A stretch of DNA of 64,000 bases from a virus (IMGVR_UViG_3300044797_000396:26551-90550), one strand, 5' to 3'; positions 9,380 to 64,000 are shown, counted from the first letter of the stretch. Numbers and translations are program-made. Notes: generated by a model not told the origin, from the letters alone.

Positions 9380-10098
9380 ATAAAGTATTGAGTATTATTA
9401 TTCCAGTTTGGAATAAATCGCACTTCACTAAAACTTGTATTCAAGACTTATCTTTACTACCAGCGGATCACGAGATCATTTTAGTTGATAACGGTAGTAC
9501 TGATGATACTGAAACAATATTCCGAAATCTAAAATTGAAAACTACTGCGCCTGAGTTTCGATACGTGCGCAATATTACTAATTTAGGTTTTGCTTGTGCC
9601 TGTAATATTGGTTATGAGGAAGCTATTGCCCATAATGTTTTGTTCCTTAATAATGACATCAAAGTGCGCGATCATTTTACTGATTGGACTAGTTCTTTAA
9701 TAGAGCATTGTGTTACTTCTTTGGTTGGACCTACCATGGGGCAACTTAATAATGAATTGGCCTTTGTCAAAGAAGCCAACCAAGAATTGCCTGGTAAATC
9801 CTATATGTCTGGTTGGTGTCTTGCCTCGTCCAAAGAAATATTCAAGAAATTGGAAATTCCCAGACCTCTTTGTATCTACGACCACATTCCAGCACCTCAA
9901 ATATTTTCCGAAGAATTTGGGAAGGCTTATTTTGAGGATACCGACTTATCTTTCCGAGCCAGACAATTGGGTATTCCATTCAAGGTAGTAAATATTCCAG
10001 TGGTTCATTTTGGAAAACAGACCAGCTCGCAACTCAATACACACAAATTATATTCCGAAGCTAGGCAAATCTTTATTAAGAAGTGGGCTAAGAAATGA
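9376..10098 (+). CDS. Glycosyltransferase, GT2 family
   Basis: LSIIIPVWN, ILVDNGSTD, NLGFACACN, FLNND, YFEDTDL. Confidence 0.9.
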   Translation: MNKVLSIIIPVWNKSHFTKTCIQDLSLLPADHEIILVDNGSTDDTETIFRNLKLKTTAPEFRYVRNITNLGFACACNIGYEEAIAHNVLFLNNDIKVRDHFTDWTSSLIEHCVTSLVGPTMGQLNNELAFVKEANQELPGKSYMSGWCLASSKEIFKKLEIPRPLCIYDHIPAPQIFSEEFGKAYFEDTDLSFRARQLGIPFKVVNIPVVHFGKQTSSQLNTHKLYSEARQIFIKKWAKK

Positions 10099-10412
10099 AG
10101 TATTTTTCGCATGAACTAAGTGATTGGACTTGGTTTGATAGAAATCTTTATAGGACAAATGATCAAAAAGGTGACAAGCAGTTTTTGATCGGGTTGGTAT
10201 GCCTCGATAAACCCAAGCCTATTCAGAATACACATGAGCTTTGGCGAGTAGATGTTTTAGATTGGGGGGGCAATCTACAGTATCATACTATTTCTTTACT
10301 CAAAGAAGCGGGTTTATATCGTAAAGAGTATTCTTATAGCGAATTGGATCAAGCTAGAAAAGAATTAGATAATTTTATTATTCGAGTTGATAAACTGAAA
10401 CTATTTATATAG
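10095..10412 (+). CDS. Hypothetical protein with C-terminal tag (RVDKLKLFI)
   Basis: 105 aa, ATGA-type packing against upstream gene, shared C-terminal motif. Confidence 0.7.
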   Translation: MKYFSHELSDWTWFDRNLYRTNDQKGDKQFLIGLVCLDKPKPIQNTHELWRVDVLDWGGNLQYHTISLLKEAGLYRKEYSYSELDQARKELDNFIIRVDKLKLFI

Positions 10413-10428
10413 AGAAAGAACGTGTATT

Positions 10429-11268
10429 ATGCCGGAAGGAGTCGAGGTCAAACTAAGTGCAGAAGTAATTAAGCCATTAGTAAAAGACAAACGAGTTCTC
10501 AGTGTTTCATTAGGAGCTAATAGTAGATACAAGTCACAACCTCCTGAGGGGTTAAATAAGTTTATTGAGGCTACATGTGCTGAAATAATAAAAGTAAATG
10601 ATGTCCAAACTAAGGGTAAGTTTATGTATTGGACACTATCTCACGATTGGCATATGTTCTGCACGTTTGGTATGTCTGGTCAATGGAGCCCCAACAAAGG
10701 CAAACATCCTTGCTTGGGTATATTTTTGGGCGAAAACCATTTGACACATCCCGTAGAAAATATTTATTTTAATGATCCGCGCCATTTTGGAACTATCAAA
10801 TTTACTAATAATCCAAAAGACTTGACAGATAAAATAAAAGAATTAGGTTGGGATCCATTGCAAATGTTATTATCCAACAATTTACCTTGGATTACGGCTC
10901 GGCTTGCAAGAACCAAAAAGCCTATTGCCGAGGTGTTGATGGATCAAAAAATCTTTGCTGGCGTTGGCAACTATATAAAATGTGAAGGTCTTTACAGGGC
11001 AAAACTTTCCCCATGGAGAGCTAGTCCATCTCTGAATAACGCAGAGATACAACTTTTATGTCAGTCTATTGTGGATGTAATGAACGAGTCGTATCAGCAT
11101 CAGGGTGCCACCATACAAACTTATAAAACTGTGTACGGTGAAGAAGGAAGATATTCAACACTTTTCAGGGTGTATGGTAAAAAAGTGGATCCTAATGGAA
11201 ACAAAATAATTAGCGAAATAACGCCAGATAAGAGGAACACGCATTGGTGTCCCATTATCCAAAAATAG
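10429..11268 (+). CDS. Fpg/Nei family DNA glycosylase/AP lyase
   Basis: N-terminal MPEG, KGKFMY, FGMSG, DPRHFG, H2TH motif LMDQKIFAGVGNY. Confidence 0.9.
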   Translation: MPEGVEVKLSAEVIKPLVKDKRVLSVSLGANSRYKSQPPEGLNKFIEATCAEIIKVNDVQTKGKFMYWTLSHDWHMFCTFGMSGQWSPNKGKHPCLGIFLGENHLTHPVENIYFNDPRHFGTIKFTNNPKDLTDKIKELGWDPLQMLLSNNLPWITARLARTKKPIAEVLMDQKIFAGVGNYIKCEGLYRAKLSPWRASPSLNNAEIQLLCQSIVDVMNESYQHQGATIQTYKTVYGEEGRYSTLFRVYGKKVDPNGNKIISEITPDKRNTHWCPIIQK

Positions 11269-11372
11269 TGTGCCCATCGATATAATAGTGTGTATGAAGA
11301 AGCGCACCAGCACAAATATAATTTACAAAATTACCGCTATAACTAGAATTATAAAAAAGTTAGGAAACAAAA

Positions 11373-14244: not shown

Positions 14245-15606
14245 ATGCCAGCTACGAGCACAACCGAACAAGGAACAAAAGAAATAATTACGGACAATGT
14301 ATCTAATACGGAAATCCGTCATCCAGAAGTAGTAGATCTCGGCAAATTGGCCGCCCTCAAAGCACAAAGCCAAGCCAAGCAAAATCAGGAGAATAAAATG
14401 GCAGCTAAGATAGTGTCAAAGAAAGAACGAAGTATCGTATTAGGGGTACTAGGATCAGGTCAGGCCGGTTCTAGAATTGCCGAGGCTTTTTACAAACTGG
14501 GATACGATGCGGTGGTATGCAACACTTGTATGGCCGATCTAAAATTTTTAGATATTCCAGATAGTAATAAACTTTTATTGGAGTATGGGGTTGGTGGCGC
14601 CAGCAAAGAGTTAGAAATCGGTCGTCAAGCAGCCGAAACTCATAGAGGAGAAATTTTACAATTAGTGAATGGAAAACTATCGGGATCTCAGGTTAATATT
14701 TTGTGTTTTTCTTTGGGCGGTGGATCGGGTGCAGGTTCATGTGAAACATTAGTAGAAATTATGTCCAACTTAGGTAAGCCGTTGGTGGTCATTACTGTTC
14801 TTCCGATGGATACCGATGATGCACAGACGAAATCAAATTCATTAGAAACTTTATCTAAATTGGCCGCTTTCGCTAGAACGAAAAAAATAAATAATCTTAT
14901 TGTGATTGATAACGCAAAAATCGAAAGTATTTATCACAATGCCAATCAATTTGATTTCTTCAATTTGGCTAATAAATCAATAGTAGAAACTTTCGATTCA
15001 TTCAACACTATGTCGTCGTTGCCTTCGGCAATCAAAGCTCTTGACCCAATGGAATGGTCAAAAATCTTGATGGATGGTGAAGGATTAAGTGTGTATGGTG
15101 AATTTATAGTAAATAATTATGTTGAAGATGTGGCTATTGCTCAGGCGGTAGTGGAAAATCTCAGCAATAATTTGTTGGCAAGTGGTTTTGATCTAAAAGG
15201 CGCTAAATATGTTGGATTTATTGTATCCGCCAATAAAGATGTTTGGGCAAAAATACCTGCGTCTAGCATTAATTATGCAACATCAATGGTTAATGATCTA
15301 ACGCCAGGAGCTAAAGGCGTATTCAAGGGCATCTATACAGTAGAAAATCAAGATGATTTCGTTAAAGTGTATTCTTTTTTCTCGGGTCTCTCGTTGCCAA
15401 CTGCGAGAATTGAGCAACTTAAAAATGACACGCTAGAATTGCAATCCAAAATAAAAATTAAGGATGAAGAGCGTAATCTTTCGCTACAGTTAAATGTTGG
15501 CTCCAATGAAACAATTAGTGACGCGCAAAAGATTAAAAATAAAATTGCAGCAAAAAGCTCTACCTTTGGAAAATTTGTAAGTGGAACAGTCGATCGTAGG
15601 AAATAA
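14245..15606 (+). CDS. Tubulin/FtsZ-family GTPase (PhuZ/TubZ-like)
   Basis: GSGQAGSRIA, tubulin signature LGGGSGAG, VIDN, LDPME; SD AAGGAG. Confidence 0.85.
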   Translation: MPATSTTEQGTKEIITDNVSNTEIRHPEVVDLGKLAALKAQSQAKQNQENKMAAKIVSKKERSIVLGVLGSGQAGSRIAEAFYKLGYDAVVCNTCMADLKFLDIPDSNKLLLEYGVGGASKELEIGRQAAETHRGEILQLVNGKLSGSQVNILCFSLGGGSGAGSCETLVEIMSNLGKPLVVITVLPMDTDDAQTKSNSLETLSKLAAFARTKKINNLIVIDNAKIESIYHNANQFDFFNLANKSIVETFDSFNTMSSLPSAIKALDPMEWSKILMDGEGLSVYGEFIVNNYVEDVAIAQAVVENLSNNLLASGFDLKGAKYVGFIVSANKDVWAKIPASSINYATSMVNDLTPGAKGVFKGIYTVENQDDFVKVYSFFSGLSLPTARIEQLKNDTLELQSKIKIKDEERNLSLQLNVGSNETISDAQKIKNKIAAKSSTFGKFVSGTVDRRK

Positions 15607-15968
15607 TGGTTAAGATACGCGATATTAATTTGTCGTCTTTCACGTATTCACAAATCAATAAAAGAGATGATGGCACCATTATTTCCCATTGTGAATTTGT
15701 AAAATCTAATATGGTAGCTAATATAGAGGCTTTCCATAACAAAAATTATGATCAGTCAGACGCCATCTTTCTGTGTTGTCGAGAGAAGATTGAAAACTCC
15801 GATGATTATAGATATACGATGTGCACCATTCCTACAACTGGATATGATGCCGAAGTAACGAACGTTCGATTAGACAGTTTTAGTAGGCTGCCCACAATTA
15901 TATTATATAGTAGATCAAACATAGCCGATGTTATAAAAAGAGTATTGAACAATCTAATTTTTTCCTAA
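15606..15968 (+). CDS. Hypothetical protein, paralog of next gene, C-terminal tag variant (RVLNNLIFS)
   Basis: Shares CREK...YRY...TIPT..Y...LPTIIL with 15998..16351. Confidence 0.7.
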   Translation: MVKIRDINLSSFTYSQINKRDDGTIISHCEFVKSNMVANIEAFHNKNYDQSDAIFLCCREKIENSDDYRYTMCTIPTTGYDAEVTNVRLDSFSRLPTIILYSRSNIADVIKRVLNNLIFS

Positions 15969-15997: not shown

Positions 15998-16351
15998 ATG
16001 AGAACCGCAACAATAGTTTCTAATCCTTTTCGCCAACATCCCAAAGAGGGCGAAACCCCTAAAACACCAACCGAGATGATGAAGGCTAGCGTATCTGAAA
16101 GTTTGGATGTGTTTGATGGTAACAATCTTGAAACCGCAGACAGGGATTGTATTTGTATCTGTGCCCGAGAAAAAACTGAGTTAGGCGAATATCGATACAG
16201 CACCATAACCATTCCTACCAAAGAATATTCTACTAACCTAGTCAATGTGGTGTTAGCTAATTTCAAGAAGATGCCTACTATCATTTTGGATGATAAAGCG
16301 GACACCGTAGAAACAGTGCGCAGGGTGCTAACTAATCTTAATTTTTCGTGA
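15998..16351 (+). CDS. Hypothetical protein, C-terminal tag variant (RVLTNLNFS)
   Basis: Paralog of 15606..15968. Confidence 0.7.
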   Translation: MRTATIVSNPFRQHPKEGETPKTPTEMMKASVSESLDVFDGNNLETADRDCICICAREKTELGEYRYSTITIPTKEYSTNLVNVVLANFKKMPTIILDDKADTVETVRRVLTNLNFS

Positions 16352-16357
16352 GGAATA

Positions 16358-16657: not shown

Positions 16658-16664
16658 GATAAAA

Positions 16665-19616: not shown

Positions 19617-19883
19617 ATGCGTCGATTTTGGAAATTTTTTATCAATGAGATAAGTTTTGTTTATCAGAACAAAAAATATGTATTGGAAGTTGGGTATGTC
19701 AATACCCATCCAGGATTATATATGAGATTGTATGATCAGGATGGTCAGCGGCTGGCGGGCAGCTGGGTTTCCAAGGTCGAAGAAAAAGTTAGAGATAGTA
19801 GTTTTGATTTTGTGGATAAAAAAATAGTGGATATTTGCGTAGCACAAGCTCGTCGCATAGAAAAATTGAAAGCATTCGTATGA
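19617..19883 (+). CDS. Hypothetical protein with C-terminal tag (RIEKLKAFV)
   Basis: 88 aa, shared motif. Confidence 0.7.
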   Translation: MRRFWKFFINEISFVYQNKKYVLEVGYVNTHPGLYMRLYDQDGQRLAGSWVSKVEEKVRDSSFDFVDKKIVDICVAQARRIEKLKAFV

Positions 19884-20485
19884 TAGATAAATTAGAAGAA
19901 ACAGGCGGGGAACTAACCGCTATTCCCAACGACAAGTATCGTAAGTTCTTTGACAAGTTTGCCGAGATCGAAACGCTAGATGTTTCGCAGTGGAAAGTGG
20001 CACATTTATTGGGCTATTTCTGCAAAAGATACAAGGAAGCATTAGGAACGGATTATGCTTGGAAGTTCAACAATCCCAGCCCCACCAAATGTTTTGAGGT
20101 ATGGCAAGCCAATACCCTGGCTGCAAAACTCTCTGCTAATCCTAAAATCCTCAAAGACTACATTGATTGGGCGTTTGACACTTTGGTTAAGGGTAAGAAA
20201 TACAAGCCGCGTTCCATTTCCTTCCTCACCAAAGAAGAAGTGGTTATCCCTTATAAGATGAATGTTTTGTTGGCTGGACAAAGAAACTCCAATGTGGATC
20301 GTTCTGCTTCCCTGCCAACTATCTACCAAGATATTCTACAACAAACGGCTGGTATTACTATTAGCACGTATGGTGATTTAGCTTTTATCTCACAAGCCGA
20401 GCCATTACCAGACAACATCATATTAGCGTTGGATCGAATGGTGGAGGCAGGATTTGATCGAGAAGTATTGAAGAGAATAGTATGA
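19880..20485 (+). CDS. Hypothetical protein in replication module (possible initiator-like)
   Basis: ATGA overlap with upstream gene; lies between helicase and DnaC/DnaB; function inferred from context only. Confidence 0.55.
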   Translation: MIDKLEETGGELTAIPNDKYRKFFDKFAEIETLDVSQWKVAHLLGYFCKRYKEALGTDYAWKFNNPSPTKCFEVWQANTLAAKLSANPKILKDYIDWAFDTLVKGKKYKPRSISFLTKEEVVIPYKMNVLLAGQRNSNVDRSASLPTIYQDILQQTAGITISTYGDLAFISQAEPLPDNIILALDRMVEAGFDREVLKRIV

Positions 20486-20793
20486 TAGTTATTAAAAAAC
20501 GAAAACTTAATTTTCTTGTGGGTGGCACAAACCCCGGAAGAATGACGCTTGATGTATTGAAGATATTTCGTCTTCCATACAATCTAACATTTATTCCCGA
20601 TGAAGATAACATTTTAGAATTTGCTGTTAAACAGGCTCAAAATCTTAATTGGGATCCTGACACAACTTTGTGTGTCTGGACTAATAAGTCGCCTGCTCCG
20701 TATCCGCGTGTCTCTTTGTTTATTAAAGACATGACTGTTGAGAGACTGATTAGTGCTACCGATAGAGTGGCAAAATTAAAGGCATTCATATGA
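20482..20793 (+). CDS. Hypothetical protein with C-terminal tag (RVAKLKAFI)
   Basis: Paralog of next gene. Confidence 0.7.
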   Translation: MIVIKKRKLNFLVGGTNPGRMTLDVLKIFRLPYNLTFIPDEDNILEFAVKQAQNLNWDPDTTLCVWTNKSPAPYPRVSLFIKDMTVERLISATDRVAKLKAFI

Positions 20794-21095
20794 TGATTAT
20801 TAAGCCAAGAAAATTTCGAGCCCGCACAAAATGGCAGGAACATAGCATAGGTATATTTGATATTTTAGATGCGCTTCATATCCAACATATTGAGATGGAA
20901 GCTCCATATGATATTGATGTTTTAGAAACTTATAAGCAAAATATTTTATCAATGAATTGGGATATTAATAAAGCCATGGTAATGCCTGTAAAAGCTCCTG
21001 GTAGAAGGCGTCTTGCATTGATTATCAATGATATAACTTTTGAGAAACTTGTGGATGCCATCAATAGGGCGGTAAAATTAAAGGCGTTTTTATGA
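20790..21095 (+). CDS. Hypothetical protein with C-terminal tag (RAVKLKAFL)
   Basis: Shares MI.IK.RK, ILE, NWD, L.I.D.T.E.L with 20482..20793. Confidence 0.7.
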   Translation: MMIIKPRKFRARTKWQEHSIGIFDILDALHIQHIEMEAPYDIDVLETYKQNILSMNWDINKAMVMPVKAPGRRRLALIINDITFEKLVDAINRAVKLKAFL

Positions 21096-24395: not shown

Positions 24396-24572
24396 ATGAA
24401 ACCAGATGAAGAAGTTGTCGGGGAGGCAGTCAGAGTAGAATATACGGAACACGATGGTAAACTATTTTTAGTCTTTGAGATAACGAACGAAAAATATAAA
24501 CAAGATATCAAGTTAAATTGGATAAAAGATTTAGAATACAAAATTGTGGATAAGTCTTTGGTAAAAAAATGA
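24396..24572 (+). CDS. Small hypothetical protein
   Basis: ATG 24396 after AAGGG. Confidence 0.55.
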   Translation: MKPDEEVVGEAVRVEYTEHDGKLFLVFEITNEKYKQDIKLNWIKDLEYKIVDKSLVKK

Positions 24573-24922
24573 ATGATATAGAATATAACAATCTCATATT
24601 GTTGGCAGAAAATTACAAACACATATGCATCAATATGTCCGAATATACTGGTATAATTACTGGACAATACTGGAAGCTAATGTCTCTAATTACAGAACAA
24701 AAAATTATACAAGCTGGTTTATACGGAACTCTTTTTAGCGCCAAACTTTGGGTGGGAAAACATATTGCCCCTAGTTATGTTTCGGTATCTAATAATGGTA
24801 CCATAACCAGCATTGAAGAAATATGGTTAAATGAGGAGGAACTTAGTAAGTGGTCGGATCAGTGCCCACTAAAATTAGCTAACGAGATGGAACGAGCACT
24901 GAAACTGAAAGCTTTTTGGTAA
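24569..24922 (+). CDS. Hypothetical protein with C-terminal tag (RALKLKAFW)
   Basis: 117 aa, shared motif. Confidence 0.7.
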   Translation: MNDIEYNNLILLAENYKHICINMSEYTGIITGQYWKLMSLITEQKIIQAGLYGTLFSAKLWVGKHIAPSYVSVSNNGTITSIEEIWLNEEELSKWSDQCPLKLANEMERALKLKAFW

Positions 24923-33573: not shown

Positions 33574-34383
33574 ATGAGAACGAACATTCCCAAAGGATCG
33601 TTCAGCGATAATAATTTAGTGCGTCTCAAAAATGAAGATTGGTTGCAAAAACAAAGGGTTGCTGGCAAAATTGCTGCTAGCGCCCTTTTGCTATTGGACA
33701 ACGAAGTCAAGCAAGGTACCACTAAAACATTATTAGAGTTGGACAAATTAGCAGAAACTTACATTAGAGATAATGGTGGTATACCTACTTTTTTGATGTA
33801 TAAAGGATTTCCCAATTCTGTTTGTGTAAGCGTGAATAAACAATTAGTTCACGGTATACCTACCGATTATGTTTTGCAAGAAGGGGACATAGTTAGTTTT
33901 GATCTAGGAGTGACGGTTGAAGGAGGAGCTATTGCCGATACTGCTATTACTTGCCTTTTTGGTAAGCCTAAATCAGAAAAACATATTCAGTTAATCAAAG
34001 ATACAGAAGAAGCCTTGATGCGTGGTATTCGAGCTATTAAGGTGGGCGATAGGCTAGGTGTTATTGGAGAGGCTATTTATAAATATAGCCGTAAACATAA
34101 TTATGGGGTCATCAATAATTATGGTGGTCATGGCTTAGATTGGAATATTCCGCACGCCTCGCCATTTGTGGAAAACAAATCAGATCATACCAAGGGAATG
34201 AGAATTCAACCAGGACTTACCATAGCCATCGAACCAATGTTTACCTTAGGTTCTACCACCACTACCACCGCCGAGGATGGTTGGACGGTGGTAACGCCCG
34301 ATCTGAGTGCGCACTTTGAGCATTCTATTTTTGTCCACGACACTCATGTAGAGATTATTACTGATAGGAGTAATTTGTGCTAA
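33574..34383 (+). CDS. map: Methionine aminopeptidase type I
   Basis: YKGFP.SVC.SVN..VHGIP, DIVSFD, DTA, GHG, IEPM, DGWT, SAHFEH. Confidence 0.93.
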   Translation: MRTNIPKGSFSDNNLVRLKNEDWLQKQRVAGKIAASALLLLDNEVKQGTTKTLLELDKLAETYIRDNGGIPTFLMYKGFPNSVCVSVNKQLVHGIPTDYVLQEGDIVSFDLGVTVEGGAIADTAITCLFGKPKSEKHIQLIKDTEEALMRGIRAIKVGDRLGVIGEAIYKYSRKHNYGVINNYGGHGLDWNIPHASPFVENKSDHTKGMRIQPGLTIAIEPMFTLGSTTTTTAEDGWTVVTPDLSAHFEHSIFVHDTHVEIITDRSNLC

Positions 34384-34634
34384 CTATTCGAGATTGTAAT
34401 ATAAGTATGAGCGCGGCTCGCCAAGATCCTCTGATCTCTGAAGAAGACAATGGTGATATTATTCTAGATAAACTTATAATTCACGATCTGGATTACGTTA
34501 TACGGCTAGAACAAGAATTCGGTGTCAAACTAAAGTTCAAGCTAATGTTGGCGGTGGATGAGCCGGGCGGTCCCACTGGCTATTATGATGAAAATGATAT
34601 TCGCAAGGTATTAAGCAACAAGGCGTTTTGGTGA
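34377..34634 (+). CDS. Hypothetical protein with C-terminal tag (KVLSNKAFW)
   Basis: 85 aa, shared motif. Confidence 0.65.
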   Translation: MLTIRDCNISMSAARQDPLISEEDNGDIILDKLIIHDLDYVIRLEQEFGVKLKFKLMLAVDEPGGPTGYYDENDIRKVLSNKAFW

Positions 34635-34854: not shown

Positions 34855-35027
34855 AAATAATTTTCGAGGATAAATCATTTGTGGAGTGCGCCAAATCCAA
34901 TACCCCTGGCAAAGTAGTTATTACTATTAGTGCGAAAGATGGCACAGACCCCCTTAAAAAAATTATCAATGCCGTAGAGATTACCGAAAAAGAATTCCAA
35001 AGACTGATTAGCGATGTCCAAGCCTAA
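34851..35027 (+). CDS. Small hypothetical protein (not in ORF track)
   Basis: ATGA overlap, GAGGG SD, MKIIFEDKSFVEC...DVQA*, 58 aa. Confidence 0.6.
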   Translation: MKIIFEDKSFVECAKSNTPGKVVITISAKDGTDPLKKIINAVEITEKEFQRLISDVQA

Positions 35028-35283
35028 AAACTCAATCTGCCCAATGTGCAAAGAATGGATGATTGATTGGGCAGATGGTAGCCAGTGTGGACAGTGTGGT
35101 ATTGTATATTGGTCAGCATCAAGCATTGAAGCTCAAATAGGCATTAGGTCTTCCAATACAAAATCGGAATGGTCGCAGATACCTTTACCTGTCGATCAGC
35201 CATATTATTATTTTATAGAGCACGAAAAATTTTATACCGTCTCAGAGATGGAAAGATTATGTCGTCTGAAAGCATTCCTATGA
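35014..35283 (+). CDS. Zinc-finger hypothetical protein with C-terminal tag (RLCRLKAFL)
   Basis: CPMC..CGQC; paralog of next gene. Confidence 0.7.
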   Translation: MSKPKNSICPMCKEWMIDWADGSQCGQCGIVYWSASSIEAQIGIRSSNTKSEWSQIPLPVDQPYYYFIEHEKFYTVSEMERLCRLKAFL

Positions 35284-35534
35284 ACCATATCTGCCCTATG
35301 TGTAAGCAAGAAATGGATGTGGCCGGTCGATGTATGAAATGTGATATCATATACTGGTCACTTGAAGAGCTGGAAGAATTACAAAGTAAAAATGGTGATA
35401 TCTTTGCTACTGAGCCGTGGTCAAAAATACGTCTCAATCCCATCGATCAATCATATTATTATTTTTTTAAACACGGAAAATTTTATACCGTTCCAGAAAT
35501 GGAACGTCTTACAAAATTGAAGGCATTTCTATGA
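35280..35534 (+). CDS. Zinc-finger hypothetical protein with C-terminal tag (RLTKLKAFL)
   Basis: ICPMCK..CMKC; ATGA overlap start; shares WS.I.L..DQ.YYYF..H.KFYTV.EMERL. Confidence 0.7.
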   Translation: MNHICPMCKQEMDVAGRCMKCDIIYWSLEELEELQSKNGDIFATEPWSKIRLNPIDQSYYYFFKHGKFYTVPEMERLTKLKAFL

Positions 35535-44688: not shown

Positions 44689-45273
44689 ATGCACAATTAT
44701 GTATTTTACGGAATAGATACTGAAACAACTGGACTTGATCCTGTAAAAAATGATATCATAGAGTTGTCTATCTATCGTCTTTCGGATGATGTCCAAAGAA
44801 CTTGGTTCCTCAAACCTATTAACTTCGACAATATCGAGACCGCCGCTTTGAGAGTTAATCATCATAAATTGGAAGATCTCCGAGGGCAAACTCAGTATGG
44901 TAGAGACACCTATCAAGATCCCAAGCAAGCCATTGTGGAAATAGAGAACTGGCTTTTTGAGGATAATGTAGATACCGCTAACCGTTGCCTTATTGCCCAC
45001 AATGCTGGCTTTGATAAGGCGATGATGGAAAGTTTGTGGTTCAAGTGCCAAGCTAGCGATAGCTTTCCTTTTGGAAGAAGATTTATTGACACAATGGTTT
45101 TAGAATTAGCTATGGATTATGCGGGCGGAGAGTATGCCGAGGGATATAGCCTCAATAACTTAGCTAAAAAGTATGCTGTCAAAAATGAGCGCGCACATAG
45201 CGCGGCAGCAGATACCAAGTGTATGGTGGAAGTATTTAGAAAGCAAGCGAACTGCCTTAAACGACTTTTCTAA
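44689..45273 (+). CDS. DEDDh 3'-5' exonuclease (DnaQ-like)
   Basis: IDTETTG, AHNAGFD, IDT, HSAAAD; GAGG SD. Confidence 0.88.
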   Translation: MHNYVFYGIDTETTGLDPVKNDIIELSIYRLSDDVQRTWFLKPINFDNIETAALRVNHHKLEDLRGQTQYGRDTYQDPKQAIVEIENWLFEDNVDTANRCLIAHNAGFDKAMMESLWFKCQASDSFPFGRRFIDTMVLELAMDYAGGEYAEGYSLNNLAKKYAVKNERAHSAAADTKCMVEVFRKQANCLKRLF

Positions 45274-45274
45274 A

Positions 45275-45541
45275 ATGTCTTCCAAACGCAAAAATCATAG
45301 AAGGCGCAATAAGGAAAGAAGAAGACGCCGTAATATAGAGAAAAGATATTGGCAAGACAAGTTTTTTGAGCTGTATCGTTTGGCTAAAAAAGTGGATATA
45401 ACACTCACCACCCATAACAGTTTCAAGCCTGATAATTGGATGTTACACAAACTGGGAACGAGCGAACTTATAATAAGTGGGACTGCTGTTGAAATAGAGC
45501 CAATTATAGATCGTTATTGGAAAATGAAGGCCTTCCTATGA
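45275..45541 (+). CDS. Arg-rich hypothetical protein with C-terminal tag (RYWKMKAFL)
   Basis: ATG 45275 just after upstream stop; shared motif. Confidence 0.65.
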   Translation: MSSKRKNHRRRNKERRRRRNIEKRYWQDKFFELYRLAKKVDITLTTHNSFKPDNWMLHKLGTSELIISGTAVEIEPIIDRYWKMKAFL

Positions 45542-48318: not shown

Positions 48319-49029
48319 ATGGATTTCGATAGCTACATCAGAGGGTTATTAAACGAGGTGGAAGGGCTTTTTGGCACTAAGCCTCAGTCTGCCCCAACCC
48401 GCGTCAGCCAGAACCCTATAAATTCTCCCGGAGGCTATACGGCCCCAATCCACGGTTCTTGGGCTTCAAGCGGGGGCTTTACGTATCAACCCAATGCTAC
48501 CCACCCCAAAGGGCATATGGGAGTTGATATGCGTTGTCAGGCAGGTACGCCCGTCTATCCCTTGACCTCAGGGGTGGTAACCAATGTAGGCACCGATCCT
48601 ATGGGCGGCAATGTAGTCAATGTCCAACATGCCGATGGTATCAGGACTTACTACGCTCATTTATCTGTGGCTAGGGTGCAGAAAGGCGATCGTGTTACTC
48701 CCAATACTGTTTTAGGATTAGTGGGAAATACAGGTAACGCCAGCCACACGGTACCACATTGCCATTTTCAAGTGTGGAAAGATAATCAAATTCAAGACCC
48801 CGCCAACTATTTTCATATCCCGCCCTACACTAATTTAAGTGCAGAAGAACGACAACAACCAAAGTGGGTTTCCGAACAAGCCAAGCAAGAGGCCCTTGCT
48901 TTCAATATGCAGGAGCATGTAGCGCAAGGGCGTGTGGCTGGAAATCGTGTGGCATTTTCTACCAATGCAGATAAACTATTAGTGCTATCTCATCAGTATT
49001 ACAAGCTTACAAAAAAGCTTTCAACTTAA
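48319..49029 (+). CDS. M23 family peptidase
   Basis: HMGVD (HxxxD), YAHL, GNTGN, PHCHF (HxH). Confidence 0.9.
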   Translation: MDFDSYIRGLLNEVEGLFGTKPQSAPTRVSQNPINSPGGYTAPIHGSWASSGGFTYQPNATHPKGHMGVDMRCQAGTPVYPLTSGVVTNVGTDPMGGNVVNVQHADGIRTYYAHLSVARVQKGDRVTPNTVLGLVGNTGNASHTVPHCHFQVWKDNQIQDPANYFHIPPYTNLSAEERQQPKWVSEQAKQEALAFNMQEHVAQGRVAGNRVAFSTNADKLLVLSHQYYKLTKKLST

Positions 49030-49207
49030 CTACTCTTTTTATTTCATCTTGTGTATATGATATTCCATTGATTGTCCAACGTTCAATGAGACGATGATAT
49101 CTAACACCTTCTTGGCACTCCAAACACACCAGCGTTGAGACAGCTGGCAAACTTTCCCAAAGTAATGGACAGCAACACAGCGGGCAAAAAGTAATATCGT
49201 CATTCAT
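49007..49207 (-). CDS. Zinc-finger hypothetical protein with C-terminal tag (RVVKLKAFL)
   Basis: CPLC..CLEC; shared motif. Confidence 0.7.
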   Translation of the reverse strand: MNDDITFCPLCCCPLLWESLPAVSTLVCLECQEGVRYHRLIERWTINGISYTQDEIKRVVKLKAFL

Positions 49208-49417
49208 TTACAAAAAAGCTTTCAATTTAATCAATCGCATCATTTCTTCTTGGGTATAAGTAGTCCCATTGTATCTCCAATAAGCGGGCCCAACATAGGC
49301 AGGTGGTATCCACAATATCACATTATCATTGCATTGCTGACATTTCCACCTTTCATACCCAGAGGAAAATGTTTCAATATACATTTTCCAATGACATAAA
49401 GGGCACCAACGCGACAT
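49208..49417 (-). CDS. Zinc-finger hypothetical protein with C-terminal tag (RLIKLKAFL)
   Basis: CPLC..CQQC; shared motif. Confidence 0.7.
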   Translation of the reverse strand: MSRWCPLCHWKMYIETFSSGYERWKCQQCNDNVILWIPPAYVGPAYWRYNGTTYTQEEMMRLIKLKAFL

Positions 49418-49663: not shown

Positions 49664-50008
49664 TCACGAAAAGACAATTAATTTCATTAGTCGCCGAAAT
49701 TGTTCATTGAGCTCATCCCAAAAAGCTTGGTTTGGCTTTGGCTCAATTTCCGACAGAGGATCAATGCTAATAACAAAGCCACTTGCATTTCTATCACTAA
49801 CCCAAAAAGGCGCGCGTGCATAGAAGCGGAAATCAGCGCCACCAAACGTTCCATCTTTTGGGGACTTCATTAGCCCCTCAAACATTACATAGGCTATCTC
49901 TTTGAGAGTTCCCTCCATACTTTCGGCGTAATAGCCGTCCTCAAATCGGAAGATATATTTATCCCCTTCTTGGGTCATCTGGAAGGTGAAAATCTGTGGA
50001 TTGCCCAT
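49664..50008 (-). CDS. Hypothetical protein, C-terminal tag variant (RLMKLIVFS)
   Basis: 114 aa. Confidence 0.65.
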   Translation of the reverse strand: MGNPQIFTFQMTQEGDKYIFRFEDGYYAESMEGTLKEIAYVMFEGLMKSPKDGTFGGADFRFYARAPFWVSDRNASGFVISIDPLSEIEPKPNQAFWDELNEQFRRLMKLIVFS

Positions 50009-53518: not shown

Positions 53519-53755
53519 TTATAAAAATGCCTTCATTTCAATAGCTCTTTTTACTTCGTTCAATCCCTCAAATTCGTGATCATCTACCTTAAAGAAAATA
53601 CGATTTATATAATTTTTCCCCGTAGGATATGTGATATGGACTTCAATGAAAATTCCAGTTTCTACGCTCAGTTGCTCTGCGTTGTCTCTCCACAATTTCA
53701 GTAATCTTACATAGCTATCATCATTGGGGTAGTATATGTCTTCTGGTAGTTTCAT
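53519..53755 (-). CDS. Hypothetical protein with C-terminal tag (RAIEMKAFL)
   Basis: Paralog of 53752..53988. Confidence 0.7.
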   Translation of the reverse strand: MKLPEDIYYPNDDSYVRLLKLWRDNAEQLSVETGIFIEVHITYPTGKNYINRIFFKVDDHEFEGLNEVKRAIEMKAFL

Positions 53756-53988
53756 AGAAACGCCTTATTAGCGATAAACTTTTCTACTTGTGCTAAGCCT
53801 TCACACTCGTGATCGAACACCTTAAAATAAATACGCTTTATTCTCTGTGTAGGATAAATATTCTCATATTCTACCAGAGTTTCTATATATACGCCAGTTC
53901 TAATACTGAGTTGCGTGGCGGCATCATACCAAGCATTCCTTATGTCTTGTGCGGACTGAAATTCATAAGCATTTTTTGGTAAAATCAT
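53752..53988 (-). CDS. Hypothetical protein with C-terminal tag (KFIANKAFL)
   Basis: Shares W.D.A.QLS..TG..IE, I.RI.FKV.DHE.EGL..V with 53519..53755. Confidence 0.7.
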   Translation of the reverse strand: MILPKNAYEFQSAQDIRNAWYDAATQLSIRTGVYIETLVEYENIYPTQRIKRIYFKVFDHECEGLAQVEKFIANKAFL

Positions 53989-55302: not shown

Positions 55303-55725
55303 TTACCAAAAAGCTCTTAATTTTATTATTTTGTTCAACAGTTGTGCTCTTCTCTTGGCGGTGCAAGAAGCATCGAATATTTCTTCCGCCAAAAAGGTCG
55401 GGATATGTTTGGGCTCAATATTGTGCCATTGTTTAAGAAATCCTCTTTTTCTAAATAAAAGTAATGGCTCACCAATAGTATCATCTACAATTCTAGCAAC
55501 GTGAGTAGGCGTTTTGACCCTATAATAACCAAAATCTTCACAGTCTTCTTTGATAGTACTAGATACGCTACACGCTAATCCAACAACACTAAAAATTATA
55601 TCCACAAATAAAATAATGGGTGCGATAATTAAGCGCTCTGTAAAGTTGAGTTCTTCTCGATCTCTCATTTTTTCGCAAGCGATATCGAGGCGCTCGTTCC
55701 ATTGATCTTTTATATATTTTAACAT
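55303..55725 (-). CDS. Hypothetical protein with one hydrophobic segment and C-terminal tag (KIIKLRAFW)
   Basis: LIIAPIILFVDIIFSVVGLAC; shared motif. Confidence 0.65.
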   Translation of the reverse strand: MLKYIKDQWNERLDIACEKMRDREELNFTERLIIAPIILFVDIIFSVVGLACSVSSTIKEDCEDFGYYRVKTPTHVARIVDDTIGEPLLLFRKRGFLKQWHNIEPKHIPTFLAEEIFDASCTAKRRAQLLNKIIKLRAFW

Positions 55726-55728
55726 TAT

Positions 55729-56028
55729 TTACCAAAAAGCCTTCAACTTCATATAGGTATCAAATTCTTTTTGCGAGCGACAGCATAATTTCTTCCCCTC
55801 AAACCACCATTCCGCCGAGCCATCGTATTTGATAGCGGCTGGGCCATTTGCACAATGCAAGATAATATTGTGCAAACCTAAACCAAGGTCTATATTGGAA
55901 GTTATACTGATTTTTTTATATTGAAACCACCGTGCGCCAAATAAATTTTCCAACACCTGACGTATAGAGGACCCTGGATTGATATCCATATTATCTTCAT
56001 AAATATCAACTTCGATAACAGTTTTCAT
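55729..56028 (-). CDS. Hypothetical protein with LH..NGPA repeat unit and C-terminal tag (YMKLKAFW)
   Basis: LHCANGPAAI..DG..EWW.EG; shared motif. Confidence 0.68.
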   Translation of the reverse strand: MKTVIEVDIYEDNMDINPGSSIRQVLENLFGARWFQYKKISITSNIDLGLGLHNIILHCANGPAAIKYDGSAEWWFEGKKLCCRSQKEFDTYMKLKAFW

Positions 56029-59744: not shown

Positions 59745-59791
59745 TACGGGCAGCGATGATAAATTAGTCACTGCCCGTATTTTTTATTTTT
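59745..59791 (+). terminator. Rho-independent terminator
   Basis: TACGGGCAG (59745-53) / CTGCCCGTA (59771-79) stem followed by T-tract. Confidence 0.75.
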
Positions 59792-59853
59792 GTCTTCGGC
59801 TAGTTGCGCTTCTACATCGCGTGGTTATACTGTTTTCTTGAAGTGAGAACCCC

Positions 59854-60633
59854 ATGAAGCGTGTAGTCGCCCTAATTTTTACAATTTTATTTTTAATCTT
59901 AATTTGTGCCCCGGCCAGCTCCCAAAATAGAGAAAATTCGCGTGAGTTAGTGGCACAAGAATTGCACACCGCTCTTATAGAAACGCCGCATTGCCCCGAT
60001 AATATGGTGGAAATTGATGGCGATTATTGTCCCAACGTACAAGAAATTTGTTTGAAATGGCTTGACACTACCCAAATGAGATGCGCAGAATTTAAGCAAC
60101 CATCTACCTGTTTATCCAAGGAGCGTAAGCATCTACATTTTTGTATGTCCAAATTTGAATATCCTGGAACGGAGGGAAGTTATCCTTTGGTAGGTATGGA
60201 TTATTACGAAGCTAAGGAAATTGCCGAAAAAGACGGTAATCGCTTATGCACCAAAGAAGAATTCAATTTTGCCTGCGAAGGAGAAGACATTCATCCGTAT
60301 GGATATGGAGATGGATTTCATAGAGACAGCAATATTTGTAATATAGATAAGCCTTGGATAGATTATGGTAAGTTTGATCAATCAAGCTGGAATGATCCGG
60401 GAGGTGGGCTGTATCAAGCAGTTAGATCAGAAAGTGTAAGTTTATGTAAATCAGATTTTGGAATTTACAATCTAAATGGTAATGTTGATGAAATTTTAGA
60501 TTCCGAGCATAGTAAAAATGTAGTCTTGTCTGGCGGATATTGGTCTACGGTTAGGTCGCGATGTCGCCCAACTACCGATGCACATAATAAATATTTTAGT
60601 TTCTATCAAATAGGTTTTAGAGAGTGTAAATGA
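59854..60633 (+). CDS. Exported FGE-sulfatase (SUMF1-like) domain protein
   Basis: Signal peptide; CP.NMV.I.G, RLCT.EE..FAC, SDFGIYNLNGNVDE, GGYW, GFREC. Confidence 0.78.
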   Translation: MKRVVALIFTILFLILICAPASSQNRENSRELVAQELHTALIETPHCPDNMVEIDGDYCPNVQEICLKWLDTTQMRCAEFKQPSTCLSKERKHLHFCMSKFEYPGTEGSYPLVGMDYYEAKEIAEKDGNRLCTKEEFNFACEGEDIHPYGYGDGFHRDSNICNIDKPWIDYGKFDQSSWNDPGGGLYQAVRSESVSLCKSDFGIYNLNGNVDEILDSEHSKNVVLSGGYWSTVRSRCRPTTDAHNKYFSFYQIGFRECK

Positions 60634-61283
60634 AACTACACGATTTCCTTCACCATCGAGAAACATGTCCCTCCTGCCAGTATCCTTTGCTTACTAGGTT
60701 TTTGCCTCGCAAACAATCTATCAAATATGAAGATGATTATATAGTTATCGTCACGGATATGTTTAGTATTAAAAAAAATCAACCTGATTATAAAGTGGGT
60801 TATTCAATGTCTTTACAGAATAATTCTTTTCATATTGAGTTTTTTACCAAAGAAGGGGTAAGGTTTGATAAAGAAATACCCATTCATTTAATTGAGAAGT
60901 TTAGAGAGCTGGATCGCTACTTAGCAGGAATGTATGTTTTTTATAGAACTTGCGGCAATTGTTTTAAGTATACCTCTTCTACCTCTCCTATCAATTTCGA
61001 TTTTTCTTCCTCTACTTTTGAGGAATTAGAATTACGTTATGAAAGTTTTTGTTTATCTGTTCCTATAAAGGATGACGACAAAGTCAAAATTATGGTGCTA
61101 TGTAATTTTACCGATAAAAGAGACCCTGAGAGTATCGTTTATTATTGGAGGGGAAATGAGACTGAAGCCCGATGTGACAAGCAGTATTCTGCTCATGCTC
61201 AGTTTCTAAGTTTGCCTCGCATCCCGTTTGTTTCAGTAGAAGAAACCACCAAGCGCCTGAGTGGACTTTTAACTTTTGCTTAA
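60630..61283 (+). CDS. Zn-binding hypothetical protein, C-terminal tag variant (RLSGLLTFA)
   Basis: CPSC..CGNC; distant paralog of 63359..64000 (SLP.IP near end). Confidence 0.68.
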   Translation: MKLHDFLHHRETCPSCQYPLLTRFLPRKQSIKYEDDYIVIVTDMFSIKKNQPDYKVGYSMSLQNNSFHIEFFTKEGVRFDKEIPIHLIEKFRELDRYLAGMYVFYRTCGNCFKYTSSTSPINFDFSSSTFEELELRYESFCLSVPIKDDDKVKIMVLCNFTDKRDPESIVYYWRGNETEARCDKQYSAHAQFLSLPRIPFVSVEETTKRLSGLLTFA

Positions 61284-61795
61284 AGAAATGCACTAAGTTT
61301 CTGGATACCCTGAAACCATCGAAGGATATCTGCTACTTTTTCTATGGAGACGTTATGAGCTTCGTTGCTCTTCCCAAAATATTTGACCCAAGCACAACTA
61401 GTGAAACGATTGTCCTTATCAAAACGTACGGGAAAATCCATTTTGCAGGGCATACCATTGGGGGTCTGATTTCGCTCTTCCCAAACCTTAAAAGAAGCGG
61501 TCATCTTTTCATCTTTTTCGTCAGGGGAGCTTAGCAATCGTGTAATATGAAGCTTGAACTTACCCACCTTGAAATTGGTAAAAAGCAGGACTTGCTTTCT
61601 AATCTCACTTGATGTGACATGAGTGAGGTCGATAGTGGCGTGACTTTGAGATTGGATAATTTTTTCTTTTGCCTCTGGTTCGGCCGGAATCCATTCCATT
61701 TTGCTAGTGTTATAGTCATCCAGGGCGTCATCATATTGTTGTTCTGCCAGCTTCTGACAAAGCTCAAAATATTCTTTACTAGTAAATGAATTCAT
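61280..61795 (-). CDS. Hypothetical protein with C-terminal tag (IQKLSAFL)
   Basis: 171 aa, convergent with 60630 gene, stops overlap in TTAA. Confidence 0.68.
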   Translation of the reverse strand: MNSFTSKEYFELCQKLAEQQYDDALDDYNTSKMEWIPAEPEAKEKIIQSQSHATIDLTHVTSSEIRKQVLLFTNFKVGKFKLHITRLLSSPDEKDEKMTASFKVWEERNQTPNGMPCKMDFPVRFDKDNRFTSCAWVKYFGKSNEAHNVSIEKVADILRWFQGIQKLSAFL

Positions 61796-61835
61796 TATAT
61801 AATATACTGCATTATTACTAAACCAGCATTATCGT

Positions 61836-62498
61836 ATGCGACCCAACAAGCTGCTAAGATTTGCTAATATATTCTATTCTTTGGCCACTGGGGAAGAGTT
61901 GCCGGCTAATTCAAGCGATCTTAAAACTGTCTTGGCAAATCTAGAAAAATTAGAAACCTATGCAGCGCGTAAGAAGTATGCCGAAGCCAATTTAGAACAT
62001 TTAAGTTCAGGTTCAAGCCGCATTACCTACTTGACACCTGATAAAACAGTGATTAAGCTGGCTAAAAACGATCGTGGGCTAGCTCAAAACAAAGAAGAGG
62101 TGGCTGCTAATTCTAAATGCAATTCCAAATATCTCAATAAGGTATTGAAAAACGTTTCTAATTACTATTGGATCGAAGTCCCCTTTTTAGATAAAATCAC
62201 AGAAAAAAAGTTCAAGGAGATGACAGGGATAGACTTCGATGATTTTGGAGAGGCACTCAGATATTCATTAAGAAGTATCTCTGGCAACACCGATAAAGAA
62301 AAGCCCAGTGATTATGAGGAGATTACTAAGTCCGATTTATTCAAGGAGATTAGCGATATTGGGAAGAAGCTTGACCTGATGCCTGGGGATTTGGCTCGTA
62401 TTTCTTCTTGGGGCGTCAAAGAGGGTAATCCCGTTCTTATAGACTGTGGATTAACTAAAAAAGTTTTCGCGGACCACTATGAAGGAACATCATCTTAA
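61836..62498 (+). CDS. Protein-kinase-like fold protein
   Basis: SSGSSRITY (Gly loop), VIKLA, QNKEE, GDL...SWG, VLIDCG; catalytic loop degenerate. Confidence 0.6.
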   Translation: MRPNKLLRFANIFYSLATGEELPANSSDLKTVLANLEKLETYAARKKYAEANLEHLSSGSSRITYLTPDKTVIKLAKNDRGLAQNKEEVAANSKCNSKYLNKVLKNVSNYYWIEVPFLDKITEKKFKEMTGIDFDDFGEALRYSLRSISGNTDKEKPSDYEEITKSDLFKEISDIGKKLDLMPGDLARISSWGVKEGNPVLIDCGLTKKVFADHYEGTSS

Positions 62499-62504
62499 GG
62501 TAGT

Positions 62505-63362
62505 ATGAAAAATACCAGAGTGTGTATAATTTATTTGTTAATCAACAAAATTAATGGTAAGGTATACGTTGGCCAAACTTGGAGACCATTAAAAGATAGA
62601 TTTGGAACAAATGGCAAAAACTACAAAGCCTGTAATTATTTGTATGCTGCCATTGAAAAATATGGGTGGGAGAATTTCGACCATAGAAAACTAACAATAG
62701 AATTATCTCAAGAAGGTGCTAATGCAGCCGAGGATTTTTACATTAAAATGTATAAAAGCAGAAATCCTCATTATGGTTATAATATAAGGGGTGGTGGTTC
62801 TACAGGTCAGCTCTCGGAGGAAACAAAGAAAATTCTATCTATTCTGAACAGTGGAGAAAATAATAATTTTTTCGGTAAAACTCATACGACAGAAAGTAAG
62901 CAAAAAGTTTCGGAAAATACAAAATTATACCATTTGATGGGCGCTTATGATCTGAAAAATGAAGAACAAAAAAGATTTACTGATATTGAAGAAAGAGAAA
63001 TAGTTCGTTTATATGAAACAGGCACTATATCTATAAAAGATCTCTTGGACAAGTATAATTTTTCTTATACAGTTTTTAATAAGATTAGGGAGAAATTCGG
63101 TCTTGAAACTATTCTTCAACCTAAGAGTGAAGAGCATATAGATAAATTAAAGGGCAATATTAATATTGCGAGACAAGCTCATGTTAAAAAGGCGGAAGAA
63201 AACACACTGGAATCTATCAAAATAGCGGTAGATTTGAGAAAAGAGGGATTACTGCAAAAAGATATTGCTGCCGCAATGAATATTACGCAGGTCAGGGTTT
63301 CGCAGCTTCTAATTCAAGCTGGACTTAGAACAGAGACTAAACGTAATAGAAAGAAAAAATGA
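62505..63362 (+). CDS. GIY-YIG homing endonuclease with NUMOD3-like repeat
   Basis: IIYLLINKINGKVYVGQT, R, AIEKYGWENF, E, GYNI..GG, NNFFGKTHT.ESKQK. Confidence 0.88.
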   Translation: MKNTRVCIIYLLINKINGKVYVGQTWRPLKDRFGTNGKNYKACNYLYAAIEKYGWENFDHRKLTIELSQEGANAAEDFYIKMYKSRNPHYGYNIRGGGSTGQLSEETKKILSILNSGENNNFFGKTHTTESKQKVSENTKLYHLMGAYDLKNEEQKRFTDIEEREIVRLYETGTISIKDLLDKYNFSYTVFNKIREKFGLETILQPKSEEHIDKLKGNINIARQAHVKKAEENTLESIKIAVDLRKEGLLQKDIAAAMNITQVRVSQLLIQAGLRTETKRNRKKK

Positions 63363-64000
63363 CAGATTTTTTCTTTACTTACCTTCGTGATGCTATCGCT
63401 TATCAGACACACTGCCCTATCTGCTTTACCAAACTAAAAATGGATGAAAATGACGCAACTATCCACAAACAGTTTCTCCAACTCCGTTCACAAAGCACTA
63501 TTGTATGGGTTATAGAGAGTGGTGAGTTGGTAGTCAATTTAGAAACTAACGAAATAGAGAAGGTGTCTAAAATTAAAGAAGCGACACCCATTTATGGAGT
63601 GGGCTATCATAGTAGTATGTCTTATACAACCGCACACCAATCTACTAGTGGTAAAATGTTTGTTAAACTTAGTATGGATTGTGAAGATTGTGGCCAATAC
63701 TTTTTTACCATACAAATGTTGGTAGATATTGGTGAAACAAAAATCGAATTCATTAGGCTCAATTCCGAGCATTTATCCGTAGAGGATGAGAGTGGCACTC
63801 TCCACGAAATCAGAAATGTTTATACCACTGGTAAAACTGAGTATAATCGCATTACCAAAACCGTTCGTCCAGGCTCTCCCAAAAGAGAGTTGACCGTCAC
63901 TTATGAAGGTGATATAGTTAGTTTGCCACTTATTCCGCTGGACTTACAGCATCCTAAAAAGACATTAGAGAGAATTAAAACTCTAATTTTATTTAGTTGA
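63359..64000 (+). CDS. Zn-binding hypothetical protein, C-terminal tag variant (RIKTLILFS)
   Basis: CPIC..CEDC; stop TGA at 63998-64000. Confidence 0.68.
   Translation: MTDFFFTYLRDAIAYQTHCPICFTKLKMDENDATIHKQFLQLRSQSTIVWVIESGELVVNLETNEIEKVSKIKEATPIYGVGYHSSMSYTTAHQSTSGKMFVKLSMDCEDCGQYFFTIQMLVDIGETKIEFIRLNSEHLSVEDESGTLHEIRNVYTTGKTEYNRITKTVRPGSPKRELTVTYEGDIVSLPLIPLDLQHPKKTLERIKTLILFS

Follow-up and report, generated by a model that had tools for sequence, protein, structure and literature searches.

In bacteriophage T4, the capsid targeting sequence (CTS) is an N-terminal peptide that is carried by a handful of internal proteins and removed by the prohead protease. Recognition by residues at a fixed distance from the free carboxylate is known from the HbYX motif, from the peroxisomal targeting signal 1 (PTS1; SKL-COOH) and from the encapsulin cargo peptides; HbYX places a penultimate aromatic or hydrophobic anchor before a variable last residue, and the PTS1 and encapsulin signals are found on many unrelated cargoes. 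Here, we describe a tag at the C-termini of 22 small open reading frames (ORFs) in a 64,000-nucleotide stretch of viral DNA (the window; bases 26,551-90,550 of the 90,550-bp IMG/VR virus record IMGVR_UViG_3300044797_000396), which behaves like an undescribed protein address label. As with the CTS, which addresses one phage structure, a short terminal peptide is the only common part of otherwise unrelated small proteins from hypervariable loci; in contrast to the CTS, the tag is C-terminal and predicted to be helical, occurs on more than 100 proteins per genome, and belongs to genes that lie among early- or middle-type genes. The tag has an ending of the HbYX type, with [ASV]-F-x-COOH in the window's own record (G000) and in two related uncultured phage records (G001 and G002), [VI]-F-K in the relative G007, and Leu or Met as the anchor in G011 and G010. 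However, a proteasome-like ring was not found in five records (PF00227: 0/5; the controls matched in 10 of 14 genomes), no TPR or encapsulin-type receptor was found, though no search was aimed at one, and the motif also differs in sequence from PTS1 and the encapsulin signals.

Three other described systems join a short peptide, or the gene pair discussed below, to an ATP-driven machine. The tail of SspB, which binds the N-domain of ClpX, is a tethering peptide of an AAA+ adaptor, a class of peptide mentioned in PMC9565160. There, too, a very short C-terminal peptide docks a substrate-binding protein on a common ATP-driven machine, but SspB is a single adaptor, whereas a repertoire of 100 or more proteins is found here and the machine is hypothetical. 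In the vWA-MoxR-linked modules of Kaur et al. (2020; PMC7159879), a zincin metallopeptidase is accompanied by small, fast-diverging proteins with a conserved C-terminal peptide, for example FxSxx-COOH. The proteins described here are likewise small and fast-diverging with a conserved C-terminal peptide, and one tagged mini-protein is encoded upstream of MoxR and zincin-VWA genes in 12 of 46 loci. The modules of that study serve bacterial defence and have a single precursor gene, or a few, beside the peptidase, and some of them include radical-SAM enzymes; here, in contrast, the tagged genes are scattered over the genome, the motif is different, and cleavage is hypothetical. Iyer et al. (2021; PMC7824862) propose that the MoxR AAA+ and metallopeptidase-vWA genes paired in jumbo phages act in virion assembly and in structural-protein processing, and do not mention tags; the same gene pair is found in the phage family studied here. 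The prediction from which this work started (the original prediction), made from the window alone, had known of no description of the motif; searches of the literature by peptide strings and by topic, covering papers apart from their supplementary data, returned no paper describing such a tag.

A shared tag at the C-termini of small phage proteins

The original prediction listed 22 C-termini, identified by the ORF start on the plus strand and by the stop end on the minus strand, and translation of the ORFs reproduced all of them (Table 1). The residue tallies were borne out as well, with Phe at position -2 in 22/22, R/K at -9 in 20/22, and L/M/N at -5 in 22/22. Two of the starts, 35280 and 45275, are internal ATGs within longer open frames (35169..35534 and 45173..45541, respectively). 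When all six frames of the 90,550-bp record were scanned from stop to stop, K[LM][KR]AF[LIVW] occurred 11 times at a terminus and never internally, and a 9-residue tag pattern occurred 17 times at a terminus and twice internally. A loose 5-residue pattern ends 21 of the 105 gene calls of G000, where 0.21 would be expected from the internal rate, and 200 shuffles of the last 30 residues gave a mean of 0.23 and a maximum of 2 such endings. All genomes counted were annotated with a custom codon-score caller, the gene calls of which are crude. A chance origin of the terminal motif is excluded, and about one in five genes of this fragment carries the tag. Both the terminal and internal scans and the gene-call statistics bear out that the tag keeps a constant distance to the free C-terminus.

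Several viral contigs gave more than one match to a degenerate DNA pattern encoding K-L-K-A-F-L-stop, among them G001 (447,763 bp, rated complete, 31% G+C) and G002 (394,192 bp, 92% complete, 36% G+C). The loose tag was found at the end of 108 of 768 gene calls in G001 (expected: 1.74) and of 67 of 633 in G002 (expected: 1.11), an approximately 60-fold excess. Within G000, Phe occupies -2 in 22 of 90 gene calls of the window, but in 0 of the 14 calls made in the upstream 26.5 kb, which hold tail and baseplate genes. The consensus common to G000, G001 and G002 has hydrophobic residues at -11 and -8, K/R at -9, K at -6 and -4, L/M at -5, A/V/S at -3 and F at -2, followed by a variable, mostly hydrophobic last residue. 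Loose-pattern tags of G001 have F in 88/88, L/M at -5 in 85/88 and K at -6 in 64/88 cases. The median length of the tagged proteins is 95-103 amino acids (aa).

The codons of the tag vary (K: AAA or AAG; L: CTG, TTG, TTA or CTT; A: GCA, GCG, GCT or GCC; F: TTT or TTC; R: five codons), and this synonymous variation indicates selection on the peptide rather than on the DNA, which rules out a nucleic-acid signal. An action of the nascent peptide in the ribosome tunnel at termination, by arrest or coupling, would suit the fixed distance to the stop codon, and also the arrangement in 7 of the 22 tagged genes (19617, 20482, 20793, 35014, 35259, 45275 and 53752) in which the last codon (NTA) and TGA make the ATGA start of the next gene. 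However, the universal ribosome tunnel would not yield the phage-specific versions of the tag described below, and the helix, which is N-capped and heptad-like and extends as far as -12, speaks for constraints imposed by a folded protein; we therefore regard an action at termination, or a signal in DNA or RNA, as extremely improbable. Translational coupling through ATGA may bias the last tag residue towards L, I or V.

The tag changes in concert between related genomes

More distant relatives were gathered with one bait, the MoxR-like AAA+ of G001, and versions of the tag were called from unbiased residue statistics covering the final 8-10 positions of small proteins. Residue -2 is F in G000, G001, G002, G006, G007 and G012, L in G011, G014 and locus L260, and M or L in G010; all of these versions retain K/R at -6 and hydrophobics at -5 and -3. 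The tag reads ...DYL[VI]F[MLI] in G012; it has F at -2 in 44 of 85 proteins of G006 (...KLAMFW, ...ELIF[TS]), and K at -6 with [VI] at -3 and then F-K in G007 (F at -2 in 89/273). C-[KR]-[KR]-[LF]-x-V-[ML]-x is the version of G010, and K-[YL]-[LIM]-[LIV]-L-x that of G011, G014 and L260 (L at -2 in 119/441 for G011). In G013 (locus L278), 9 of 34 small proteins end in V-M-[ED]-S. An ending of a different kind, C-P-Q-C-G-x-x-H, closes 59 of 698 gene calls of G008; at about 215-330 kb of this genome (IMGVR_UViG_3300050821_013430) we observed it as C-[PSH]-Q-C-[GKR]-x-x-H-(x)-stop. No shared ending was detected in G009, a complete genome with terminal repeats, in which the best residue triplet scored 6 vs. 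3 in the control, compared with 63 vs. 5 in G001; the tagless state is represented by this single genome.

One family of bodies could be followed across these versions. A profile of the HRxDGPA-repeat proteins from which the last nine columns had been removed has 68 members (24 in G006, 17 in G001, 11 in G007, 6 in G009, 5 in G011, 3 in G002, one each in G000 and G008, and none in G010). Each member has the tail of its own genome: ...KLKAFW in G000-G002, ...KLAMFW or ...ELIFT in G006, ...KEMVFK in G007, ...KYLTLV in G011 and ...RALGKMK in the tagless G009. Since many families have one tail per genome and one family has different tails between genomes, the tag appears to change in concert, and this is the strongest argument for a common co-evolving reader; such a genome-wide change of version between relatives is what would be expected of a tag read by one co-evolving receptor. 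One of the few internal tags also belongs to this family: a 162-aa frame of G002 (40431-40919, minus strand; L110:434-919) holds two HRxDGPA modules, each ended by a tag, the first of them internal (...KLKAFF), and looks like two tagged genes fused through loss of a stop codon.

We propose that the tag is a portable C-terminal docking or address helix that is read by one co-evolving partner, probably phage-encoded, and we give this proposal about an even chance of being correct. The recognition helix would comprise about 12 residues, with the core [RK](-9)-x-x-K(-6)-[LMI](-5)-K(-4)-[ASV](-3)-F(-2)-x(-1)-COOH, and its carriers would form a large, fast-turning repertoire of small accessory proteins. 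The variable hydrophobics at -11, -8 and -1 would lie on one side and pack onto each protein's own body; R/K -9, K -6, L -5, A -3 and F -2, on the adjacent side, would be shown with the free carboxylate to one common partner and docked on it. We infer this two-face geometry and the single reader, the faces being assigned from 100 degrees per residue rather than from coordinates. As the partner would co-evolve with the tag, it is most likely phage-encoded. Docking could deliver the carriers to a remodelling or processing machine, package them, or recruit the host targets that they bind. The modular tag read by one common receptor that the original prediction envisaged is partly supported, by the selection on the peptide, the fixed register, the dissimilar bodies and the concerted change of version; the receptor itself is hypothetical.

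Dissimilar bodies and rapid turnover of the tagged proteins

When the last 14 residues were removed, 149 tagged proteins fell into 113 BLAST clusters, and body-only iterative searches with hidden Markov models (HMMs) divided the 22 window proteins into 19 families. Alignments that include the tail unite five Zn-ribbon proteins and pair 20482 with 20793; judged from sequence, an honest range is 15-19 independent families. The claim that the bodies are unrelated stands for most of them, which have no similarity detectable by clustering or HMM searches, but not for the Zn-ribbon and HRxDGPA-repeat proteins. These two largest groups share a C-terminal module of about 25 residues, a hairpin-plus-helix ending of the form W-x-x-x-G-x-x-h-x-[ST]-x-x-E-h-x-x-h-h-K-L-K-A-F-h (h, hydrophobic). 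Searches of 27 tagged proteins against Pfam returned no family at its cut-off, and the label "MORN-like" for the HRxDGPA repeats is unsupported by Pfam. As originally predicted, the tag is absent from every Pfam-recognisable enzyme or structural protein scanned in the window.

The window shares synteny with about 327-423 kb of G001 and also with G002. By BLAST, its untagged genes have orthologs of 40-70% identity in both genomes; the tagged genes, with the exception of 55729, have none there, yet tagged genes fill the same slots. An approximate query for 55729, in which the start codon was missing, gave one match in a large protein collection (89% identity). Among the small proteins of G001, 17 of 106 tagged and 186 of 408 untagged ones had a tblastn match in any of six relatives. 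The tagged genes of G001 concentrate in the variable arms (20-170 kb and 400-440 kb), with nearly none in the virion block. In the window, they are interleaved with genes of nucleotide metabolism and replication (ThyX, GMP reductase, exonuclease), an arrangement that looks like early or middle expression.

A model of one tagged protein suggests what the tag may look like when folded. The AlphaFold2 model of 49208 (69 aa; 5-row alignment; predicted local distance difference test [pLDDT] 88.9; predicted template modelling score 0.72) has five strands followed by a helix at residues 56-68, Q-E-E-M-M-R-L-I-K-L-K-A-F, which coincides with the tag stretch (pLDDT 82-92 in the tag region), suggesting that the tag forms a helix at the terminus, packed behind a small sheet. 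Foldseek against the PDB gave a best E-value of 0.48 for this model, the weak rows being sheet-plus-helix domains such as polo boxes, and a wide VIA-align search gave a best Z of 4.4, so that no fold was assignable.

The order of sheet and helix in the model, the weak matches to sheet-plus-helix domains, the module shared by the Zn-ribbon and HRxDGPA families, and the barely alignable bodies with a common strand-turn-helix ending in matching slots would all agree with an arrangement without any reader, in which one old, highly divergent superfamily keeps its last helix for folding or self-association only. A purely structural helix, however, should not keep K-L-K-A-F on Zn-ribbon, repeat, Arg-rich and membrane-like-segment proteins alike, and it should neither change in all families of a genome at once nor be lost from the G009 HRxDGPA family while the body persists. 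We consider descent without a reader to be quite unlikely.

A basic and hydrophobic terminal helix could also take early proteins to the inner membrane, as an amphipathic targeting helix of the MinD or FtsA kind, and the G011 version is very hydrophobic (...KLLVLL, ...KYLLLI). Known membrane-targeting helices keep their amphipathicity and not exact residues. In contrast, specific residues are kept in the G001 tags, F at -2, a small residue at -3 and K at -6 are near-invariant within a genome, and the model packs the helix behind the sheet; membrane targeting is very unlikely in our estimate.

Candidate readers and points against a docking helix

Several observations weigh against the proposed docking on one partner. 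We identified no reader of the tag. Only one confident model of a tagged protein was obtained; that of 20793 (pLDDT 59.8) was left out of the fold claims. In the confident model the tag helix is predicted to be packed and structured, so its conservation could be partly structural. The 25-residue ending of the Zn-ribbon and HRxDGPA proteins implies that some of the apparent grafting of the tag may reflect the shared ancestry of a larger module. A non-polar C-terminus is also a classical signal for degradation, and a tandem of ClpP and an inactive ClpR-like copy, which lacks the catalytic Ser and His, is present in 13 of the 18 related records searched. MoxR and zincin-VWA, the one gene pair left as a candidate partner (see below), are present in every record, including the tagless G009, and since all relatives were found through MoxR, the co-occurrence of MoxR and the tag is circular.

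The ClpP pair, located at 221802-222981 of G001 (L096:1802-2978) and found in G002, G005, G007, G008, G010 and others as well, bears on the possibility that the tag is a C-terminal degron for the timed destruction of early accessory proteins by an AAA+ protease, be it host ClpXP, ClpAP or FtsH, or the phage ClpP/ClpR-like pair in combination with an unfoldase of the host. In favour of this, the tail is non-polar, contains basic residues and requires a free end, the tagged genes lie among nucleotide-metabolism genes and not virion genes, and from otherwise syntenic blocks of the tagless G009, exactly the ClpP pair is missing, together with a YjoB-like AAA+. On the other hand, G011 (95% complete) and G013 (100%) are strongly tagged without ClpP, in which case a host Clp protease could still act; in the model, the tag (pLDDT >80) forms a packed helix and no loose tail; and a conserved host protease would leave the change of version between close phages unexplained unless the hosts differ. 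We judge a degron to be an unlikely explanation. In the tandem, the second copy retains the Ser/His/Asp context, and in the first, ClpR-like copy, Asn replaces the Ser and Gly the His. A 452-aa helical protein encoded beside ClpP had no match in Pfam or the PDB.

As for the partner of a docking helix, the strong tags of G011 and G013 indicate that neither the ClpP/ClpR pair nor the YjoB/Cdc48-like AAA+ (453 aa) is the general reader, for both are absent from these genomes; the latter is also absent from G008. A PDZ reader was rejected: a lone 80-aa PDZ-like protein occurs in G001 (16632-16874; L085), where it matches PDZ_2 with 25.2 bits, below the cut-off, and it has no homolog in G000, G002, G004 or G005. 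T4-type gp23 and gp21 were not detected in five records searched with PF03420 and PF07068; as the control genomes were likewise unmatched, the protease may still be present. The phyletic pattern of presence in G002, G010 and G011 and absence from G009 was shown by 8 genes, none of them a plausible reader; those that could be annotated encode a polynucleotide kinase-phosphatase, an RNA ligase and a thioredoxin.

These comparisons leave the MoxR AAA+/zincin-VWA pair as the sole candidate, a weak one that we think doubtful as the reader. More than 700 homologs of MoxR exist, many of them on contigs of 350-480 kb. In the relatives, a MoxR-like AAA+ gene is directly followed by a fusion of zincin (HExxH) and VWA (DxSxS); of 46 loci, 38 have both motifs in the gene directly downstream of MoxR. 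The relatives also encode a second MoxR-like paralog. A protein of 113-140 aa that ends in a variant of the tag (...KLKTYLLFS or ...KISTLLTFL) is encoded directly upstream of MoxR in 12 of the 46 loci; each genome has more than 100 further tagged genes, which are dispersed rather than placed beside the pair. A complex prediction for MoxR with a tagged HRxDGPA-repeat protein of the same genome, a single run without controls, scored 0.04 (mark: 0.32) and carries no weight for or against binding. Most loci also have, at one or two genes' distance upstream of MoxR, a gene for a conserved protein of about 102 aa with the acidic tail ...FE-x-DP-x-x-x-[LI]N (G001 181000-181308). Zincin and VWA are fused in every genome except G009 (343206-344889; L173:11289-12858), in which the zincin (HExxH) and VWA (DRSGS) parts occupy separate ORFs that lie in different frames, overlap by 41 nt and retain their motifs; a frameshift, a genuine split or an error of assembly could account for this.

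Genomic context of the tagged genes

The phage of the window is a member of an uncultured family of phages of about 400-450 kb; its record has a CheckV completeness of 21%, and the window has about 40% G+C. The window encodes a PhuZ/TubZ-like tubulin, two helicases, ribonucleotide reductase, PhoH, ThyX, a GMP-reductase-like enzyme, two exonucleases, a SET-domain protein and an M23 peptidase, as well as large tail and baseplate proteins that run on into the upstream sequence. Megablast of 4.3 kb against phage records revealed no close cultured relative. The tubulin is 70% identical to that of G001 and 60% to that of G002 (60-70% across G001, G002 and G004), and its sole cultured match by tblastn is in Bacillus phage G, at 23% identity. 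G001 encodes two Thg1-like tRNA-His guanylyltransferases (158359-159141 and 208980-209765), a polynucleotide kinase-phosphatase, RNA ligases and a CCA-adding/poly(A) polymerase-like gene, which together look like a large tRNA repair set.

Table 1. Tagged ORFs and selected neighbouring genes of the window (positions counted from the first base of the window).
Feature	Coordinates	Strand	Tag	Tag coordinates	Remarks
105-aa ORF	10095..10412	+	RVDKLKLFI	10383-10409	No Pfam family; no BLAST ortholog in G001/G002
PhuZ/TubZ-like tubulin, 453 aa	14245-15606	+			PHROG 4733, E 2.8e-9; C-terminus untagged
120-aa ORF	15606..15968	+	RVLNNLIFS (weak)	15939-15965	Directly after tubulin gene; paralog of 15998; no Pfam family
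117-aa ORF	15998..16351	+	RVLTNLNFS (weak)	16322-16348	
88-aa ORF	19617..19883	+	RIEKLKAFV	19854-19880	After helicase gene
103-aa ORF	20482..20793	+	RVAKLKAFI	20764-20790	Same slot holds tagged genes in G001 and G002
100-aa ORF	20793..21095	+	RAVKLKAFL	21066-21092	Low-confidence alpha/beta model, terminal helix 83-99
117-aa ORF	24569..24922	+	RALKLKAFW	24893-24919	
85-aa ORF	34377..34634	+	KVLSNKAFW	34605-34631	GTG start
89-aa Zn-ribbon ORF	35014..35283	+	RLCRLKAFL	35254-35280	
91-aa Zn-ribbon ORF	35259..35534	+	RLTKLKAFL	35505-35531	Frame open from 35169
88-aa Arg-rich ORF	45275..45541	+	RYWKMKAFL	45512-45538	Frame open from 45173
M23 peptidase gene	48319-49029	+			
66-aa Zn-ribbon ORF	49007..49207	-	RVVKLKAFL	49010-49036	
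69-aa Zn-ribbon ORF	49208..49417	-	RLIKLKAFL	49211-49237	Modelled; predicted helix 56-68 = tag
Zn-ribbon ORF, ~79-86 aa	49417..49677	-	RISKLKAFL	49420-49446	
114-aa ORF	49664..50008	-	RLMKLIVFS (variant)	49667-49693	
78-aa ORF	53519..53755	-	RAIEMKAFL	53522-53548	Paralog of 53752
78-aa ORF	53752..53988	-	KFIANKAFL	53755-53781	
140-aa ORF	55303..55725	-	KIIKLRAFW	55306-55332	Hydrophobic segment
99-aa HRxDGPA-repeat ORF	55729..56028	-	TYMKLKAFW	55732-55758	Only tagged window body family present in relatives
SET-domain protein	56025-56516	-			Adjoins two tagged genes
217-aa ORF	60630..61283	+	RLSGLLTFA (weak)	61254-61280	
171-aa ORF	61280..61795	-	GIQKLSAFL	61283-61309	
GIY-YIG/NUMOD3 homing-endonuclease-like gene	62505-63362	+			
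213-aa ORF	63359..64000	+	RIKTLILFS (variant)	63971-63997	Resembles ...KLKTYLLFS of the mini-protein upstream of relatives' MoxR

Discussion

A docking helix read by one partner could be part of a genome-wide addressing code, in which an F-, L- or M-anchored helix tethers at least 100 hypervariable small effectors to one phage machine, with MoxR/zincin-VWA as the candidate, for remodelling, cleavage or loading, for example into the capsid for co-injection, and in which the repertoire and its reader drift together. This extended form is speculative, and we hold it to be unlikely. The lineage-specific versions of the tag make the question of the reader approachable, both through co-variation of core proteins, of which a genome has roughly 130, with the anchor residue and through fusions. 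If the docking helix proposed here is correct, one short peptide would address 15-50% of the small proteins across a family of very large phages, and the common partner would offer a handle on hundreds of proteins to which no function has been assigned. The tag would also be compact and portable enough to serve in engineering, and addressing of this kind would amount to an unrecognised organising principle of giant-phage infection.

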